Counted from the stretch's first letter, positions 5,242 through 49,628 are shown. The stretch: DNA of 64,000 bases from Patescibacteria group bacterium UBA7435 (GCA_002477545.1 DLQJ01000007.1:19942-83941); one strand, 5' to 3'. Program-made: numbers and translations. Notes: a model not told the origin generated them from the sequence alone.

Positions 5242-5461
5242 CTAGACCTTTACAAATAGTACGTTCACCCGTACTATTTATCTATACCACTGACACAGTT
5301 GACACCTGTTGAGGTATTGAACAAACGAGCCCAGCACCACTCTTACACAAAAGTGGTGCTGGGGAAGTAGGGTGGCACCGCGAACAATCACCAGATTGCA
5401 ATCGCCCCTATAAACATATTATTACTAATATTTTTATAGGGGCGATTTATGTATTCCTATT

Positions 5462-5764: not shown

Positions 5765-7126
5765 ATGAAACGAACACTTATTAAGTCTCTATCAGAGCAT
5801 GTAGAAAAGGAAGTAACAATCAACGGAATTGTTGATGTTGCACGACAGCAAGGGAAGATGGCTTTCTTTGATTTTCGTGACTACACAGGAAAAGTGCAGG
5901 GGGTAGTCTTTGGAAAACCTGAGGTGCTTGAGACTGCCAAAGAACTCGGAAGCGAATACGCAGTTTCTGTTACCGGAATGGTAAACAAACGACCTGAGAA
6001 GATGGTAAATGCTGGAGTCGTTAACGGAGACATTGAACTAGAGATTACTGGAATTGAAATTTTGAATCCAGCAGAAGCTCTGCCATTTGATATGGACGCA
6101 GATTTTGCGATTGATACGCTTCTTGATAACCGTCCACTAACACTCCGACGAGACCACGATCGAGCAGTATTTACCATACAGCATGAGATCGTTACTGCTT
6201 ACCAAGAGTTCCTTGTAGGAGAAGGATTCACCTCATTCCAAGCACCAAAGCTTGTAGGGGGTGATGCTGAAGGGGGAGCTGAAGTATTTAAAGTGAAATA
6301 CTTTAAAGAACGAGACGCCTTCCTCTCAACGAGTCCACAGCTATACAAACAAATTATGGTTGGTGTGTTTGAGCGAGTATTTTCTATTGCTACGGCATTT
6401 CGAGCTGAAAAAAGTGCAACCAGCCGTCATTTAAGTGAATATTCGTCACTTGATATGGAGATGGGATTTATTACTGATCACTTGGATGTGATGCGCGTTG
6501 AAACATCATTGATGAAGCACCTGGTTAAGCACTTGGGCGCACATGCTGTTGATGCATTGAAGACACTTGAAATTGAACTTCCTGCAATCCCTGATGGAGA
6601 CATCATGCCCTACATGAAACTTCGTGAAGCTCAAGAGCTTATCCTGAAAGAGACAGGAGTAGACAAGACAAGTGAGCCTGATCTGGAGCCGGAAGACGAA
6701 CGATGGTTGTGCGAGTATGCGAGCAAGAATCTTGGTTCTGACTTTATCTTCATTACGCATTATCCAGTTTCAAAGCGACCATTCTACACATACGAGGATC
6801 CTGAAGACCTTGGCTTCACGAAGAGTTTCGACCTTCTCTTTCGAGGGGTAGAAATTACTACTGGTGGACAGCGTGTGCATGACTACAAAACACTACAAGA
6901 AAAAATTACTGCAAAGGGAATGAACCCTGAAGATTTTTCATTCTACCTACAGGCATTCAAAAATGGAATTCCTCCACACGGTGGATGGGGAATGGGGCTT
7001 GAGCGATTGACTGCGAAGTTCTGTGGAGTTGCCAACGTAAAGGAAGCAACACTCTTCCCTCGAGACATCAACCGAATTGATGCACTACTTTCTAAGGCAG
7101 AACAGATGCCTGAGGAAACTGAATAA
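5765..7126 (+). CDS. aspS: Aspartyl-tRNA synthetase, archaeal/eukaryotic-type (about 450 aa)
   Basis: N-terminal OB fold. Class II motifs 'FRAEKS', 'GGWGMGLERL' and the flipping loop 'STSPQLYKQ'. Confidence 0.85.
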   Translation: MKRTLIKSLSEHVEKEVTINGIVDVARQQGKMAFFDFRDYTGKVQGVVFGKPEVLETAKELGSEYAVSVTGMVNKRPEKMVNAGVVNGDIELEITGIEILNPAEALPFDMDADFAIDTLLDNRPLTLRRDHDRAVFTIQHEIVTAYQEFLVGEGFTSFQAPKLVGGDAEGGAEVFKVKYFKERDAFLSTSPQLYKQIMVGVFERVFSIATAFRAEKSATSRHLSEYSSLDMEMGFITDHLDVMRVETSLMKHLVKHLGAHAVDALKTLEIELPAIPDGDIMPYMKLREAQELILKETGVDKTSEPDLEPEDERWLCEYASKNLGSDFIFITHYPVSKRPFYTYEDPEDLGFTKSFDLLFRGVEITTGGQRVHDYKTLQEKITAKGMNPEDFSFYLQAFKNGIPPHGGWGMGLERLTAKFCGVANVKEATLFPRDINRIDALLSKAEQMPEETE

Positions 7127-8620: not shown

Positions 8621-8692
8621 TACCGCTACCTACACACAAAGGGCGGAAAAGCTTTGCTTTTCCGCCCTTTGTACATGCTAAAATAAACTTAA

Positions 8693-27833: not shown

Positions 27834-27888
27834 GTTACATACATACAAAAAAGCCACAGCATGCTGTGGCTTTTTTGTATGTTCAAAT

Positions 27889-29664: not shown

Positions 29665-30117
29665 ATGTATTTGTTAAGATGGAAAAAACCTTGGCATAAG
29701 CAAGCAGAATTGCGTACGATTACTATTGCAATGCGTTTACTTGAAGTCCTTAGACTTAGGTATAATTGCAATATAAATGAGACTGTATTAAGTGAAGTTA
29801 TTTTTGAAAAACATACAAAAACAGATTTCTCTGTTATTTGTGTTTTTAATAACCCAAAACTTGATCATTTCAGGGTAAGAGTTTGTTTTATTAAAAAATC
29901 AGAGACCTATACCTCTACGGCCGGTGAAATAAGAGTAGGCATAGATAGCATTCTGTCACGCTCAGGATCATTCACAATTTCTGATACTAACGAAATAATT
30001 TTACTTCTTGACGGGATAAATCCTTTTGGTACAGCACAGGAATATACTTTAAGAACAAGCATTACAACCAGAACAGCGGCGGAAGTATATAATCTGAAAA
30101 CAAAAAAGCGTGCCTAG
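29665..30117 (+). CDS. Hypothetical protein (isolated gene flanked by long non-coding DNA)
   Basis: 150-aa ORF. No motif recognised. Confidence 0.35.
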   Translation: MYLLRWKKPWHKQAELRTITIAMRLLEVLRLRYNCNINETVLSEVIFEKHTKTDFSVICVFNNPKLDHFRVRVCFIKKSETYTSTAGEIRVGIDSILSRSGSFTISDTNEIILLLDGINPFGTAQEYTLRTSITTRTAAEVYNLKTKKRA

Positions 30118-30130
30118 GCACGCTTTTTTA
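30101..30130. terminator. Bidirectional terminator
   Basis: 'agcgtgcctaggcacgct' followed by TTTTTT. Confidence 0.65.
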
Positions 30131-30145
30131 TGTTCCAATGGTGTT

Positions 30146-35748: not shown

Positions 35749-35771
35749 TGTGTAAGGGTAGCCCTTACACA
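35749..35771. promoter_or_regulatory. Perfect 10-3-10 palindrome TGTGTAAGGG-TAG-CCCTTACACA (candidate operator) in the divergent promoter region
   Basis: Seen directly. The same half-sites recur twice at 46855-46906. Confidence 0.5.
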
Positions 35772-36133: not shown

Positions 36134-36237
36134 AAAGACTCCATTGAAAAAGCGTACGGTATACCGTACGCTTTTTCATAAACAAAAACAAACGACCAAT
36201 GCGCTAAGCGCATTGGTCGTTTGTTTTGTACGTGCCT

Positions 36238-45692: not shown

Positions 45693-46814
45693 TTATTCCT
45701 CAATCTGCGCAGGCTTATCCAATTCCAACTTCTCTACCCCAATGCTGTCCCCAGAAATCTTCGTCACATCCTTATCAATCTTTCCTAACTCTTTCTGCGC
45801 AGCATTGTAGTGGTTTACCGTTGTTCCCAGTGTATTTCCCAACTTCTCGAAGTACTCATTGTACGCTGAAAGATGTCGGGTTAGCTTCTCTACATTCTTT
45901 TGAATTTCTTTTGCTGACTCCTCTACCTTAAACGCACGGAATCCATACAATACCGATTGCAGATACGCAGCAAATGTTGTTGGAGAAACAATGATCACGT
46001 TCTTGTCTTTATACGCGTAATCAATAAGTGATCGTGTGTTTACTTTTACTGATCCAACTTCATTTACCAACAAGTCATAATAGATTGCTTCAGCCGGAAT
46101 ATACATAAACGCAAATGGTAGCGTGCCATCCTTCGGACGGATGTATTTTGCTGTTTCATCAATACGCTTCTTTAGATCATTCTTGAACTCCTTCTCTAGC
46201 GCTTCACGCTTAGAGTCATCAGTCTCCTCAACCAACCGCCGATAGTTATCAAGCGAGAACTTCGCATCTACAGGAATCAATCCATCTTTGGTAATAATCG
46301 CTGCATCTACCGCTTCACCTCCTGGAAATTGATATTGCAGTTTGTAGCCAGTTGCAGGCAGAATATTTTCAAGAGCAAGCAGAAGTGAGGCTTCTCCAAG
46401 GTTTCCACGTTGTTTTTGGTGTTTCAACACCTTCTCAAGACTTTGTAACTGTTCAGCAACCGTAAACACCTGTTTTGAGCTCTCAGACACCTCAGAAACA
46501 CTCTTTTGTACATTCAGCAGCTTTGCACCCACACTCTCTTGTATGGACTGAATTTGGGCATTCACGTCCCTATTTATCTCCTGAATAAGCTCCTTACTCT
46601 CCTTAAACTGCACGCGAGCATTATTCTGCATTTGTGCACTACTCTCCCCCATTCGTTCGTGCATCGTTCGATTAAGTTCTTGAAGCTGTTGTTGCATCAG
46701 TAACATACTCTTATCGTCTGTTTTATCTTCCTCTTTCTTAAAAAATGAGTTGTACACCAATATAGCTAACACTGCAACAAGGAGCAGGAGCACCGCAATC
46801 TGAATTATTTCCAT
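45693..46814 (-). CDS. rmuC: DNA recombination protein RmuC
   Basis: N-terminal TM, long coiled coil, and a C-terminal RmuC nuclease-like region ('FAFMYIPAEAIYYDLL'). Confidence 0.75.
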   Translation of the reverse strand: MEIIQIAVLLLLVAVLAILVYNSFFKKEEDKTDDKSMLLMQQQLQELNRTMHERMGESSAQMQNNARVQFKESKELIQEINRDVNAQIQSIQESVGAKLLNVQKSVSEVSESSKQVFTVAEQLQSLEKVLKHQKQRGNLGEASLLLALENILPATGYKLQYQFPGGEAVDAAIITKDGLIPVDAKFSLDNYRRLVEETDDSKREALEKEFKNDLKKRIDETAKYIRPKDGTLPFAFMYIPAEAIYYDLLVNEVGSVKVNTRSLIDYAYKDKNVIIVSPTTFAAYLQSVLYGFRAFKVEESAKEIQKNVEKLTRHLSAYNEYFEKLGNTLGTTVNHYNAAQKELGKIDKDVTKISGDSIGVEKLELDKPAQIEE

Positions 46815-46854
46815 AGTCCGACTATTTTACCACGTAATGAAAAACACAAAAATG

Positions 46855-46906
46855 TGTGTAAGGGTAGTCCTTACACAACATATTGTGTAAGGACTACCCT
46901 TACACA
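46855..46906. promoter_or_regulatory. Two inverted copies of the TGTGTAAGG-N6-CCTTACACA palindromic unit, forming a hairpin with a 24-bp stem and a 4-nt loop, directly upstream of rmuC
   Basis: Seen directly. Same half-sites as the 35749-35771 palindrome. Confidence 0.5.
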
Positions 46907-46916
46907 CATTTTCGCC

Positions 46917-49628
46917 TTACTTCCCTTCGTAGAAAAAGAGTTTTCCTAGCTCGATAGTGACCAGAGAAAGAAGACTTGCTCCCACTGCATATCCAATAAG
47001 ATTCCACGGCAGTGGTGTGTACGAAAGAAGGTATTGGAAGAACGGTACGGTAAGTACTACGGCCAACATACATACACTAATCAAGAATGAACCAACAAAG
47101 AAAAGGTTGGTATGTAGCGGGATTTTCCATATCGGTACAGTAAGTGATCTAAATGCGAATGAGATAAACAGTGAGTCCATCGAAATAGCAAGGAACATAA
47201 CACTTCGTAACTCTGCCAATGGCAATTCTAGATATTGTAGATACAAATATAGTGAGATGGTAATAGCACTCAAGACAGTGATAACAAATACCATAAACCA
47301 AACCATATGCTTTGAAAGTAAACCTTCTTCGTGAATATCAAACGGCTTACGCTTCATTGCATTTTTATCTCCCTTCTCGAAAGCAAACGCAACACTCATT
47401 AACCCCTCTTCGATCATATTTGCCCAGAGAATCTGTGCAGGAAGAATTGGTACAGCTGAAGATGTCAGCAATGCGGTGGCAATAAGCGCAACCTCACTCA
47501 AACTCGTTGAAAGTAAGTACCCCACAATCTTCCGAAGGTTTGCGGTAATACGGCGTCCTTCTTCAATAGCAGCATAGATAGTTTCAAAACTATCATTAAC
47601 CAAAACTAAATCAGAGGCTTCCTTGGCAACTTCAGTACCTGAGCCAATTGCAATACCAATGTTCGCACGGCGTAGGGCAGGAGCATCATTTATTCCGTCA
47701 CCAGTCATCGCAACAATCTCACCTTTTTGTTGCAATACAATAGCAATACGCATTTTTTGTTTTGGCAGTATGCGGGCAAAAACACTCACTGTGGTGAGAG
47801 CCTCGATAAGTTCTTCGTCTGAGAGCTGTGCCAAATCATCTCCGGTAAGAGCCACATCATCGGGTCCTGCGATACCTACATGCTGTGCGATAGACAATGC
47901 TGTCTGTGGATTGTCTCCTGTGATAAGTACCACGTTCGCACCTGCCGATTGCACGCCTTCAATAGCATGTTCAACGCCCTCTCGTAATGGATCGTCAATA
48001 ATTAAAACTCCTGCAAACACAAGATCTTCGAGTAGTGTCGGTTCAGTTTCAGGAATATCATCGTACTGAACCTTTTTATACCCAACGGCAATCAAACGCT
48101 TTCCTTCGTGGGTATATTTTGCAATCGCTTGTGAAAGGTGCAATTTTGCTTCATCATGAAATACTTCAATTCCAGACTCATGAACAATTGACGTTGCATG
48201 CTTAATAAGCGTCTCAGGTGAACCATTAACACACAATCGAAAACCATCTACTTCTTCAGATAATCCAGCTGCAAAGCGATTCTCCGAAGTAAACGAAAGA
48301 TAATCAATGCGGTTAGATCGCAAACTTCCCTTTTTCTCATCAATATCTAAAGAAGCCGCAGACTCCAAGATTGCTCGTTCAACTGCCTCTCCTCGTATAA
48401 CACGTTCGTGCGTTGCTACGTCTGTATATGCATCGGCAGCTGATAGGGACACATCAAATAGTTCATATACATCATCGACATTTGAAAAATCTTCTTGATC
48501 AACATATTTATTTTCTTCAAGTAGAACACCAGTTACTGCCATTGTCGCTTGGGTAAGTGTACCGGTCTTATCAGTTAGTACATATGTGGTTGAACCAAGT
48601 GTTTCTGCAGCCAGCAGGTTTCTCACTAGTCCACCGCGAGTAAGCAGTGCCTCCATCCCTACAGCAAGAATAATAGTCACCGCAGCAGGAAGTCCTTCAG
48701 GAATAGCAGCAACTGCAATGGCAATAGACATCAGTAACATGTCATGTAGCGTCTGATCTTGGAAAAGACCAATCACAAAAATAAAGACCACCAGTGCTCC
48801 AATGATGTAGAGCATAATTGCAGAAAGTTTTTTCATTTCCTCCTGCAGTGGTGTTCTCACCTCTTCAACCATATGTACACTCGCTGCCAATACACCCACC
48901 GCAGTATCGTCTCCAAGAGCCACAACAACTCCCTGTGCGTACCCCTCAGACACAAACGTTCCCATCCATGCCATAGAGGAACGTTCAGCAAATGGTGTCC
49001 CCACCGCAACTGCATCAATACTCTTATCTACCGGCATCCACTCCCCCGTAAGAGCTGCTTCGTTTACCGTGAGTTTTTTACACCGAATCAAACGCACATC
49101 TGCTGGTACTTGTGTACCCGCAGTTAAAACCACCACATCACCTATAACAACCTCTACTGCTTCGATTTGATGTTTCCTGCCATTACGAATGACGGTTGCA
49201 GTGCGTACTTGTGACTGTGCAAGCTTCTGGAATGCTCGTGATGCTTTTCCTTCTTGCAATACTCCAACAAAAACAGCAACACATAATGCCAACGCGATAA
49301 CACCAGCATCCACATATTCTCCAAGCGCTATGGTAATAGCAAACGCAAGTACCAGCACGTACACCAGCGGACTTTTAAACTGCCCCGCAAAGCGATCGAC
49401 AAAGGTCTCTTCTTTACTTGGAGTAAAACTATTTGAAGGTCCCTCTTTTTGTCGCTTCCGGACTTCGCTTGTAATCAGACCATCATCAGTAGATCCAACA
49501 ACAGTAAGTACCTCACGAGGATCGTGCGCGTGATACGCATACGACTTTTCCTGTAGCTTCGTGGCATGCACCACGTGTACGTTTGGGTCTTTTGGAGAAC
49601 TCGACATAATGGTAGTATAGCAAGACAC
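46917..49628 (-). CDS. P-type cation-transporting ATPase (P2-type, Ca2+/Mg2+ family)
   Basis: 'DKTGTLT', 'TGDN' and 'GDGINDAPAL'. About 10 TM helices. Confidence 0.85.
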   Translation of the reverse strand: MSCYTTIMSSSPKDPNVHVVHATKLQEKSYAYHAHDPREVLTVVGSTDDGLITSEVRKRQKEGPSNSFTPSKEETFVDRFAGQFKSPLVYVLVLAFAITIALGEYVDAGVIALALCVAVFVGVLQEGKASRAFQKLAQSQVRTATVIRNGRKHQIEAVEVVIGDVVVLTAGTQVPADVRLIRCKKLTVNEAALTGEWMPVDKSIDAVAVGTPFAERSSMAWMGTFVSEGYAQGVVVALGDDTAVGVLAASVHMVEEVRTPLQEEMKKLSAIMLYIIGALVVFIFVIGLFQDQTLHDMLLMSIAIAVAAIPEGLPAAVTIILAVGMEALLTRGGLVRNLLAAETLGSTTYVLTDKTGTLTQATMAVTGVLLEENKYVDQEDFSNVDDVYELFDVSLSAADAYTDVATHERVIRGEAVERAILESAASLDIDEKKGSLRSNRIDYLSFTSENRFAAGLSEEVDGFRLCVNGSPETLIKHATSIVHESGIEVFHDEAKLHLSQAIAKYTHEGKRLIAVGYKKVQYDDIPETEPTLLEDLVFAGVLIIDDPLREGVEHAIEGVQSAGANVVLITGDNPQTALSIAQHVGIAGPDDVALTGDDLAQLSDEELIEALTTVSVFARILPKQKMRIAIVLQQKGEIVAMTGDGINDAPALRRANIGIAIGSGTEVAKEASDLVLVNDSFETIYAAIEEGRRITANLRKIVGYLLSTSLSEVALIATALLTSSAVPILPAQILWANMIEEGLMSVAFAFEKGDKNAMKRKPFDIHEEGLLSKHMVWFMVFVITVLSAITISLYLYLQYLELPLAELRSVMFLAISMDSLFISFAFRSLTVPIWKIPLHTNLFFVGSFLISVCMLAVVLTVPFFQYLLSYTPLPWNLIGYAVGASLLSLVTIELGKLFFYEGK

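Follow-up and report, generated by a model that had tools for sequence, protein, structure and literature searches.

REPIN-RAYT systems are discussed as long-lived, vertically inherited replicators in bacterial genomes, and to our knowledge nearly all studies of them concern Proteobacteria and a few other phyla. They have been documented as REP doublets that form hairpins in Pseudomonas fluorescens SBW25 and as the REP/BIME sequences of Escherichia coli with TnpA_REP (RayT) (PMC3116915, PMC5581495, PMC3479197). The hallmark of REPs and REP-associated tyrosine transposases (RAYTs) is a RAYT gene that is bracketed by two palindromes (PMC5581495, PMC3116915), the 5' foot of REP hairpins carrying GTAG or CGTC as a conserved guide tetranucleotide (PMC3479197, PMC3733652), and the RAYTs being vertically inherited as a single copy per genome (PMC5581495). 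Our full-text literature searches yielded no paper that links REPs or RAYTs with Patescibacteria. Here, we describe a hairpin in a stretch of 64,000 nucleotides from Patescibacteria group bacterium UBA7435 (hereafter, the window). Based on the present data, this hairpin is very probably a REPIN of a REP-RAYT system in a Patescibacteria (CPR) bacterium, gained in the lineage of the window, with a putative mobilisation by this system and a putative role as terminator. The element is best filed in this way together with a number of differences from the known REPIN-RAYT systems, the most general one being its host, which has an ultra-small genome; the other differences are indicated below where they appear.

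At positions 46849-46912, the window contains a perfect palindrome with arms of 30 nt (46849-46878 and 46883-46912) that are 100% complementary and enclose a 4-nt loop. This is the longest inverted repeat of the 64-kb window. The element has no strand of its own and consists of two inverted REP units with a 6-bp outer extension (AAAATG/CATTTT). Unit A (46855-46877, plus strand) reads TGTGTAAGG-GTAGT-CCTTACACA and forms a 9-bp stem with a 5-nt loop, while unit B (46884-46906, minus strand) has the same sequence in inverted orientation, and the spacer between them (46878-46883, ACATAT) measures 6 nt. This bears out the original prediction of two inverted units that are each a hairpin by themselves; the long hairpin that they were predicted to form together was also found, but its arms are 30 bp long instead of the predicted 24 bp. 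The unit, TGTGTAAGGGTAGTCCTTACACA, matches without mismatch at 46855-46877 (plus) and 46884-46906 (minus), and with one loop mismatch at 35749-35771, where a solitary unit on the plus strand (TGTGTAAGG-GTAGC-CCTTACACA) has a 10-bp stem and a 3-nt loop. The half-sites that had been noticed as common to the doublet and this second site are those of a third unit. Against these three matches in the window, none were found in 100 dinucleotide-preserving shuffles. In general terms, the unit is a 23-nt sequence of the pattern TGTGTAAGG-N5-CCTTACACA, of which the doublet comprises two inverted copies, and with its 9-10-bp stem and 3-5-nt loop it has the format of a REP, that is, of a short stem-loop palindrome of about 20-40 nt.

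When transcribed from the minus strand, the doublet is predicted to fold as RNA with -60.9 kcal/mol (z = -10.6), the corresponding value for single-stranded DNA being -34.3 kcal/mol (z = -13.2). With RNA parameters, one long hairpin (-56.2 kcal/mol) is far more stable than the twin-hairpin form (-24.5 kcal/mol), and a REPIN is a pair of closely spaced, inverted REPs that folds into a single long hairpin. The short extragenic palindromes, present singly or as inverted doublets that fold into one long hairpin, are thus like those of known REPIN-RAYT systems, from which the present doublet differs in being very compact (2 x 23 nt plus a 6-nt spacer) and in having perfect stems where the stems of those systems are mismatched. 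A further difference is that no conserved guide was found at the foot: neither GTAG nor CGTC is conserved at the 5' foot of the hairpins, whose 5' flanks are A-rich and not conserved, and GTAG is present only within the loop and only in the window lineage. The doublet can alternatively be parsed as GTAG, an 11-bp hairpin and CTAC, but the solitary units cannot be parsed in this way.

We scanned one representative genome per species (596 Gb) for TGTGTAAGG-N5-CCTTACACA and obtained 19 sites at 16 loci, mostly in Patescibacteria MAGs. By our arithmetic, the 18-nt self-complementary core is expected by chance about 9 times in 596 Gb and about 0.1 times in the small CPR fraction. The latter accounted for 16 of the observed sites, which belong to Patescibacteria MAGs (Nomura-, Kaiser-, Staskawicz- and Saccharibacteria, and the Parcubacteria group) and to a MAG labelled 'Patiriisocius', while the remaining three sites, high-GC or Firmicutes, fit the chance expectation. 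The label of the latter MAG (JBLHQB01, 'Patiriisocius sp.', a Flavobacteriaceae genus; L002, L005, L014, L015 and L038) looks wrong, since it is syntenic with the window at 76-85% identity and its RmuC is at least 90% identical. An absence of the unit outside the two window loci, which the original prediction had named as a possible objection, was not observed, as the unit occurs both in other genomes and around the gene P0004 described below. Unlike in known REPIN-RAYT systems, the same 9-bp stem is present without change across class-level lineages (Kaiser-, Staskawicz-, Nomura- and Saccharibacteria). Elsewhere, the unit is typically located 0-20 nt past stop codons, often between convergent genes and beside unrelated genes, and the CPR sites are extragenic or overlap just the 3' end of a gene, except for L013, which lies inside an ORF. 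In 11 of 35 distinct units, the stem is extended by at least 3 bp with lineage-specific sequence between A- and T-tracts. These outer stems include a compensatory pair (aaaagca/tgctttt versus aaaacca/tggtttt), and such covariation points to recognition of a hairpin rather than a duplex.

The copy number appears to be low for a REP family, a few copies as opposed to the tens to hundreds of known REPIN-RAYT systems. In genomes that have units beyond the two beside the RAYT gene, about 3-6 exact-core units were found, numbers that come from incomplete public scans and do not represent a census. The window has 3 units at 2 extragenic sites in 64 kb, the same contig carries 2 more, one on either side of its RAYT gene, and further sites are present in co-occurring contigs. 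A metagenome scan for the lineage-specific pattern returned just 6 stretches and missed contigs known to carry the pattern, which makes it unusable as a census. Several REP units extend into the final codons of the gene before them (L001 6185-6207, L008 1013-1035, L004 3737-3759 and L007 4699-4721), and the GTG-TAA of such units provides the stop of a GIY-YIG gene (...KKSV*), a RAYT gene (...KYV*) and a trigger factor gene. The C-termini of these genes seem to have been rewritten by REP insertion. Partial or tandem extra half-units were observed beside full units at L007 4675-4721, L016 about 700-746 and 1497-1515, and L011 3715-3737, one example being ttgtgtaaggctaagcctttt followed by a full unit in a Saccharibacteria MAG; this suggests local REP duplication or decay.

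In each of L004, L005 and L016, a gene of 195-236 aa stands between two units. The motif search, which was blind to genes, led in this way to the same gene family as the RAYT-like gene P0004 described next. A search for homologues with the L005 protein gave 6,396 relatives, those few with a source name being labelled just 'transposase'. The window itself contains no RAYT gene, as judged by tblastn. However, contig ERZ27295458:k141_703926 (186 kb, L017), which holds window positions 35693-56814 at 100% identity, has a single Y1/HUH transposase-like gene, P0004 (196 aa), about 94 kb from the window locus. Its upstream REP (L030 9932-9954, TGTGTAAGGGTAACCCTTACACA) lies 46 nt before the ATG, and its downstream REP (L030 10601-10623, TGTGTAAGGGCTACCCTTACACA inside aaaaaca/tgttttt) lies 9 nt past the stop, so that the REPs flank a RAYT gene of the same genome. 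L030, L005 and L044 share the gene order CBS / 249-268-aa gene / RAYT / rpoD, which in L030 and L044 extends to dnaG, although the RAYT proteins of these three lineages are only about 60% identical to each other; in three further lineages, the RAYT gene follows a TPR gene. Every recovered context of P0004 represents one locus. Together with the kept synteny, this speaks for a gene that is inherited vertically in single copy rather than for an insertion sequence. In other Patescibacteria, the units beside the homologues have either the same core or a lineage-specific variant, and distant homologues have other hairpins on their flanks (CCAAGG..CCTTGG, ttCCAGGactccCCTGGaa, and GGTCTAAGG..CCTAGACC), which indicates that the palindrome changes with the RAYT lineage. 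In all these respects (an apparently single-copy Y1/HUH gene, the same palindromes on both flanks, a chromosomal position that is kept between related species, and a palindrome that varies with the RAYT lineage), the system resembles known REPIN-RAYT systems. Canonical RAYT loci have inverted flanks, and direct hairpins represent an IS200-type layout. The orientation of the flanking REPs varies here, unlike in canonical loci, being direct in L004, L005, L016 and L042 and inverted in L030, L044 and L040.

The RAYT-like protein scores above the cut-off of Pfam Y1_Tnp ('Transposase IS200 like'), and its sole NCBIfam match is REP_Tyr_transpos (NF047646), with 26-45 bits against a cut-off of 80 bits. 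The proteins (195-236 aa) thus differ from known RAYTs in falling under the NCBIfam RAYT cut-off, and they represent a distinct subfamily. In an alignment of 70 homologues, N78-H79-x-H81 (HUH), Y139, N143 and P144 do not vary, and H141 hardly varies. The spacing of Y139 and N143 equals that of Y115 and N119 in E. coli TnpA_REP (PMC3479197). HMMER searches of the PDB gave no matches with the single protein, and with a profile the best match was ISDra2 TnpA (E = 0.18, HUH region only); because these sequence searches were uninformative, a fold search was needed. The AlphaFold model of P0004 (pLDDT 93, pTM 0.90) has as its top Foldseek match in the PDB 4er8_A, the E. coli REP-associated tyrosine transposase in complex with a REP hairpin (E 5.9e-6, TM 0.59/0.69, 181 columns), the next matches being the IS608 and ISDra2 TnpAs (E about 4e-4, 132-134 columns). 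A predicted fold closest to 4ER8 is a further likeness to known REPIN-RAYT systems, and the protein has the Y1 HUH fold, the HUH motif, the catalytic tyrosine and the Y-x3-N motif of a RAYT.

The window could be compared with three syntenic relatives, L036 (DnaB 92% identical), L047 (90%) and L049 (84%). Relatives whose DnaB is 80-83% identical bear the names Pacebacteria and Parcubacteria group. In the 11-21 kb that are syntenic with the window, no REP unit was found in any of them with up to 4 mismatches. The conservation in relatives that the original prediction called for was therefore not observed at the orthologous sites: L047 and L049 lack a unit at either window site, and L036 lacks one at the ATPase-rmuC site. 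L036 is similar to the window up to the ATPase stop (46918) and again from 46844 onwards, the extended -10 element of rmuC (TGGTAAAAT, 46832-46824) and the start codon being conserved. The same extended -10 element is kept in L047, while in L049 the ATPase and rmuC genes are 15 nt apart. The ATPase-rmuC spacer of L036 and L047 (about 445-451 nt) contains a small ORF and an ordinary terminator (AAAACCCGGCATTGCTCGGGTTTTTT in L036, AAAACCCCGACTGTGTCGGGGTTTT in L047). This ORF encodes 96 aa at L036 5622-5912, and in L047, where it lies between 13891 and 14341, it is apparently interrupted. Where the relatives have this ORF and terminator segment, the 64-nt REPIN stands in the window. Past the terminator of L036 (about 5949-5960), CTTTACCCACAT matches the right end of the REPIN, CCTTACACACAT, at 10 of 12 bases, which could be the remnant of a REP half-site or a coincidence. 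The solitary unit at 35749 lies in a spacer that measures 156 nt in the window compared to 26 nt in L047 and 14 nt in L049. The empty orthologous sites indicate that both window copies are lineage-specific gains.

A second doublet is present at an unrelated locus (L025/L026; L026 1585-1636). Its units are the same, its spacer reads ACATAC where the window doublet has ACATAT, and the two doublets are 92% identical over 52 nt. The second doublet originates from metagenomes that also hold the window organism, so that membership of the same genome is likely, and it brings the known doublet copies to two. We infer mobility from presence and absence between species whose flanking genes are 76-85% identical, the alternative being deletion in the relatives. 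The genome of the 'Patiriisocius'-labelled relative contains a RAYT of its own as well as REP units elsewhere (L002, L014 and L015), which is consistent with turnover. Among 21 contigs with the window RmuC, all 21 are 100% identical across the locus, and no polymorphism was seen within the population. Window positions 35693-56814 (L017-L022) are 100% identical over 21 kb in independent assemblies (ERZ27295458, ERZ23491656, JGI 3300025577, SRR5821670/1 and SRR1700446), which points to one clonal population that was repeatedly sampled, or to shared source material.

That the doublet is a lineage-specific REPIN insertion and not a conserved operator follows from the flanked RAYT-like gene, the 4ER8 match, the second doublet and the empty sites. 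The original prediction had considered an operator pair, and a dimeric transcription factor, such as a DNA-damage regulator, could in principle use the units to regulate rmuC and the genes near 35749. Indeed, a DNA-recombination gene starts 40 nt downstream of a 9-N5-9 palindrome whose outer edge reaches into the -35 position of the putative rmuC promoter, and the second copy lies in a divergent promoter region, namely the spacer between an Ada-Zn-like 116-aa gene and rpmA. This explanation is nonetheless extremely improbable, and it is already largely refuted by the missing conservation at orthologous promoters: the units are absent upstream of rmuC in the three syntenic relatives, of which two keep the -10 region. 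Neither such conservation nor a coherent regulon was found; the units lie mostly 0-20 nt past stops and often between convergent genes, beside unrelated genes, their outer stems covary, and they consistently bracket the Y1/HUH transposase-like gene, their recurrent partner. A very improbable explanation is that the doublet is an unusually long intrinsic, bidirectional terminator of local origin, which would resemble sequences elsewhere by convergent terminator composition. It has the perfect hairpin between an A-tract and a T-tract just past a stop that characterizes such terminators, it is called terminator-like and has a U-tract, many solitary units lie between convergent genes, the window is full of perfect A-tract/stem/T-tract hairpins, and relatives have a terminator at the same place. 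What sets it apart from terminators is the stem, a repeat that is conserved and linked to a transposase-like gene. Identical or nearly identical copies of the 23-nt unit are present at unrelated loci and beside P0004, which lies on the same contig, the 18-nt core occurs at 16 sites in CPR where about 0.1 would be expected by chance, and the ordinary terminators of the window have no common sequence. The repeat-family evidence thus argues against a purely local origin, while a terminator function is retained in the best explanation.

A closer competitor, though still an improbable one, is that the Y1 gene is an active insertion sequence of the IS200/IS605 type with the hairpins as its ends, the solitary units and doublets being miniature derivatives or scars (PATE/MITE-like). 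Like IS200/IS605 elements, the loci combine a Y1 HUH fold with a subterminal hairpin on either side of the gene, the two hairpins having the same orientation in some cases (L004, L005, L016 and L042), in a unit of about 700 bp; the hairpin / tnpA / hairpin units span 699-773 bp, which is the size of IS200, the Pfam class is Y1_Tnp, and solitary hairpins are few. As with IS200/IS605 and their miniature derivatives, no target-site duplication was seen around the doublets. However, the gene is apparently single-copy and syntenic across species, unlike IS200/IS605: it occupies the same rpoD-adjacent locus in three lineages with RAYTs that are about 60% identical and a TPR-adjacent one in three others, and the contexts of P0004 are all one locus. 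The best structural match over the full length is TnpA_REP (4ER8) and not an IS TnpA, and the only NCBIfam match is the RAYT model. The active-site motif of IS608 is Y-x3-Q. In its structure and its Y-x3-N motif, the present protein is closer to the RAYTs, the active site being that of TnpA_REP (PMC3479197).

Several other candidates were considered and rejected. An SOS/LexA-type operator, an idea prompted by rmuC, was dropped since no Patescibacteria motif was found in the literature and the site is not conserved upstream of rmuC in the relatives. The centre of the doublet (46873-46888, ACACAACATATTGTGT) resembles the NrdR-box consensus, but the centre of the second doublet differs (ACACAACATACTGCGT) and the solitary units lack it, and this candidate was set aside. 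Repeats that double as terminators are known, for example inverted uptake-sequence pairs in Neisseria. Unlike there, the 9-mer is rare in the window, with just 7 exact copies in 64 kb, which rules out an uptake-sequence-like density, and matches with 1 mismatch are at chance level. Rfam matches were limited to generic eukaryotic miRNA and snoRNA hairpins, all of them below threshold, and no match was found in viral contigs that would indicate a phage or att-site origin.

Returning to the REPIN, its position between the stop of a P-type cation ATPase gene (46917-49628) and the start of rmuC (45693-46814) was correctly predicted, both genes being on the minus strand. The 3' end of the ATPase gene abuts the REPIN, with 4 nt between the stop codon and the palindrome, and the rmuC ATG lies downstream at a distance of 34 nt from the palindrome and 40 nt from the first unit. 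A U-rich tract, UUUUUGUGUUUUU (46840-46852, minus strand), covers the 3' foot of the hairpin and the bases that follow on the ATPase transcript, resembling the tail of a terminator; the stem on the ATPase mRNA amounts to 30-33 bp and runs into this tract. A terminator scan scored the hairpin with its T-tract as terminator-like (4 calls compared to 0.4 expected), and a stable hairpin followed by a U-tract at the 3' end of a gene is the arrangement of an intrinsic terminator. Since the doublet lies 4 nt past the ATPase stop and is followed by UUUUUGUGUUUUU, where L036 and L047 have an ordinary terminator at the equivalent place, a role in terminating the ATPase transcript or in stabilising its 3' end is plausible. 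We infer that the REPIN may end or stabilise this transcript in place of the ordinary terminator of the two relatives; equally, the 30-bp RNA duplex could be a substrate for RNase III. Termination would not be general to the repeat family, as the L025 doublet sits between divergent genes. The window also has many perfect hairpins of the form A-tract, GC-stem and T-tract, with arms of 15-21 nt and unrelated stems (27841-27882, 36145-36178, 36185-36227, 30096-30135, 8636-8672 and others), two of them back to back downstream of rpmA, and these are presumably bidirectional terminators.

The putative extended -10 element of rmuC (46824-46832, minus strand) lies 9 nt upstream of the ATG. It is native to rmuC and lies outside the element, since it is kept in L036 and L047, which both lack the REPIN. 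A REPIN-borne promoter was rejected because the same rmuC promoter is found in REPIN-free relatives and the likeness between the flanks of the window doublet and of L026 reflects the promoter consensus of the lineage. It should be noted here that extended -10 elements (TGnTAAAAT) only about 9-12 nt before start codons and without a recognisable -35 were observed at window 46812-46832, L036 5980-6003 and L025 about 5334-5380, and that a consensus promoter scan made no call at these sites. The spacing between -10 element and start suggests that leaderless or near-leaderless mRNAs may exist in the window lineage.

Taken together, we propose that the one RAYT-like Y1/HUH nuclease of the genome, itself flanked by REPs, would bind the REP hairpin in single-stranded DNA, cleave it and rejoin it, by analogy with E. 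coli TnpA_REP, and that this would copy REPs and REP doublets into extragenic sites. The window lineage would have gained the doublet at a site that follows the ATPase stop codon and precedes the rmuC promoter. In the mRNA of the ATPase gene, the 30-33-bp stem with the U-rich tract most likely serves to end the transcript, to protect its 3' end or to do both, which would insulate rmuC with its own putative extended -10 promoter.

In the subclade nearest P0004, and limited to it, a REP-like palindrome, TGTGAAAGGG-NNN-CCCTTACACA, is located inside the RAYT reading frame (L030 10156-10178, L004 3227-3249, L005 3264-3286, L044 10156-10178 and L045 7812-7834), a feature in which this subclade differs from known REPIN-RAYT systems. 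The in-frame copy reads GTG AAR GGG NNN CCC/TCC TTA CAC, which is translated as (R)VKG[L/V]PLH, or RVKGVSLH in L045. It differs from the REP consensus by one base, at the point where the consensus would give a TAA stop. Across the five lineages, whose proteins are about 54-62% identical, all synonymous sites outside the loop codon are identical except for AAA/AAG. One may speculate that Patescibacteria carry an old, vertically inherited REP-RAYT system, that the stem TGTGTAAGG/CCTTACACA has been fixed across classes, possibly via the in-frame copy, and that dispersed copies have been recruited as terminators; we regard this wider scenario as doubtful. If true, this would tie protein coding to DNA recognition, the RAYT enzyme could use the internal hairpin to sense or regulate its own gene, and terminators would have been recruited from repeats in genomes with almost no spare DNA.

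The REPIN extends the range of REPIN-RAYT systems to the streamlined, roughly 1-Mb genomes of Patescibacteria, which are under strong pressure of DNA loss, and it offers a compact model, with a perfect hairpin of 23 nt and an enzyme of 196 aa for which a confident structure model is available. For annotation, it means that the genes should be described as RAYT-like rather than as IS transposases and that the hairpins should not be read as operators, while the element itself probably separates the transcripts of the ATPase gene and of rmuC. Most of the interest lies in the host group and in the REP-like palindrome within the RAYT frame.
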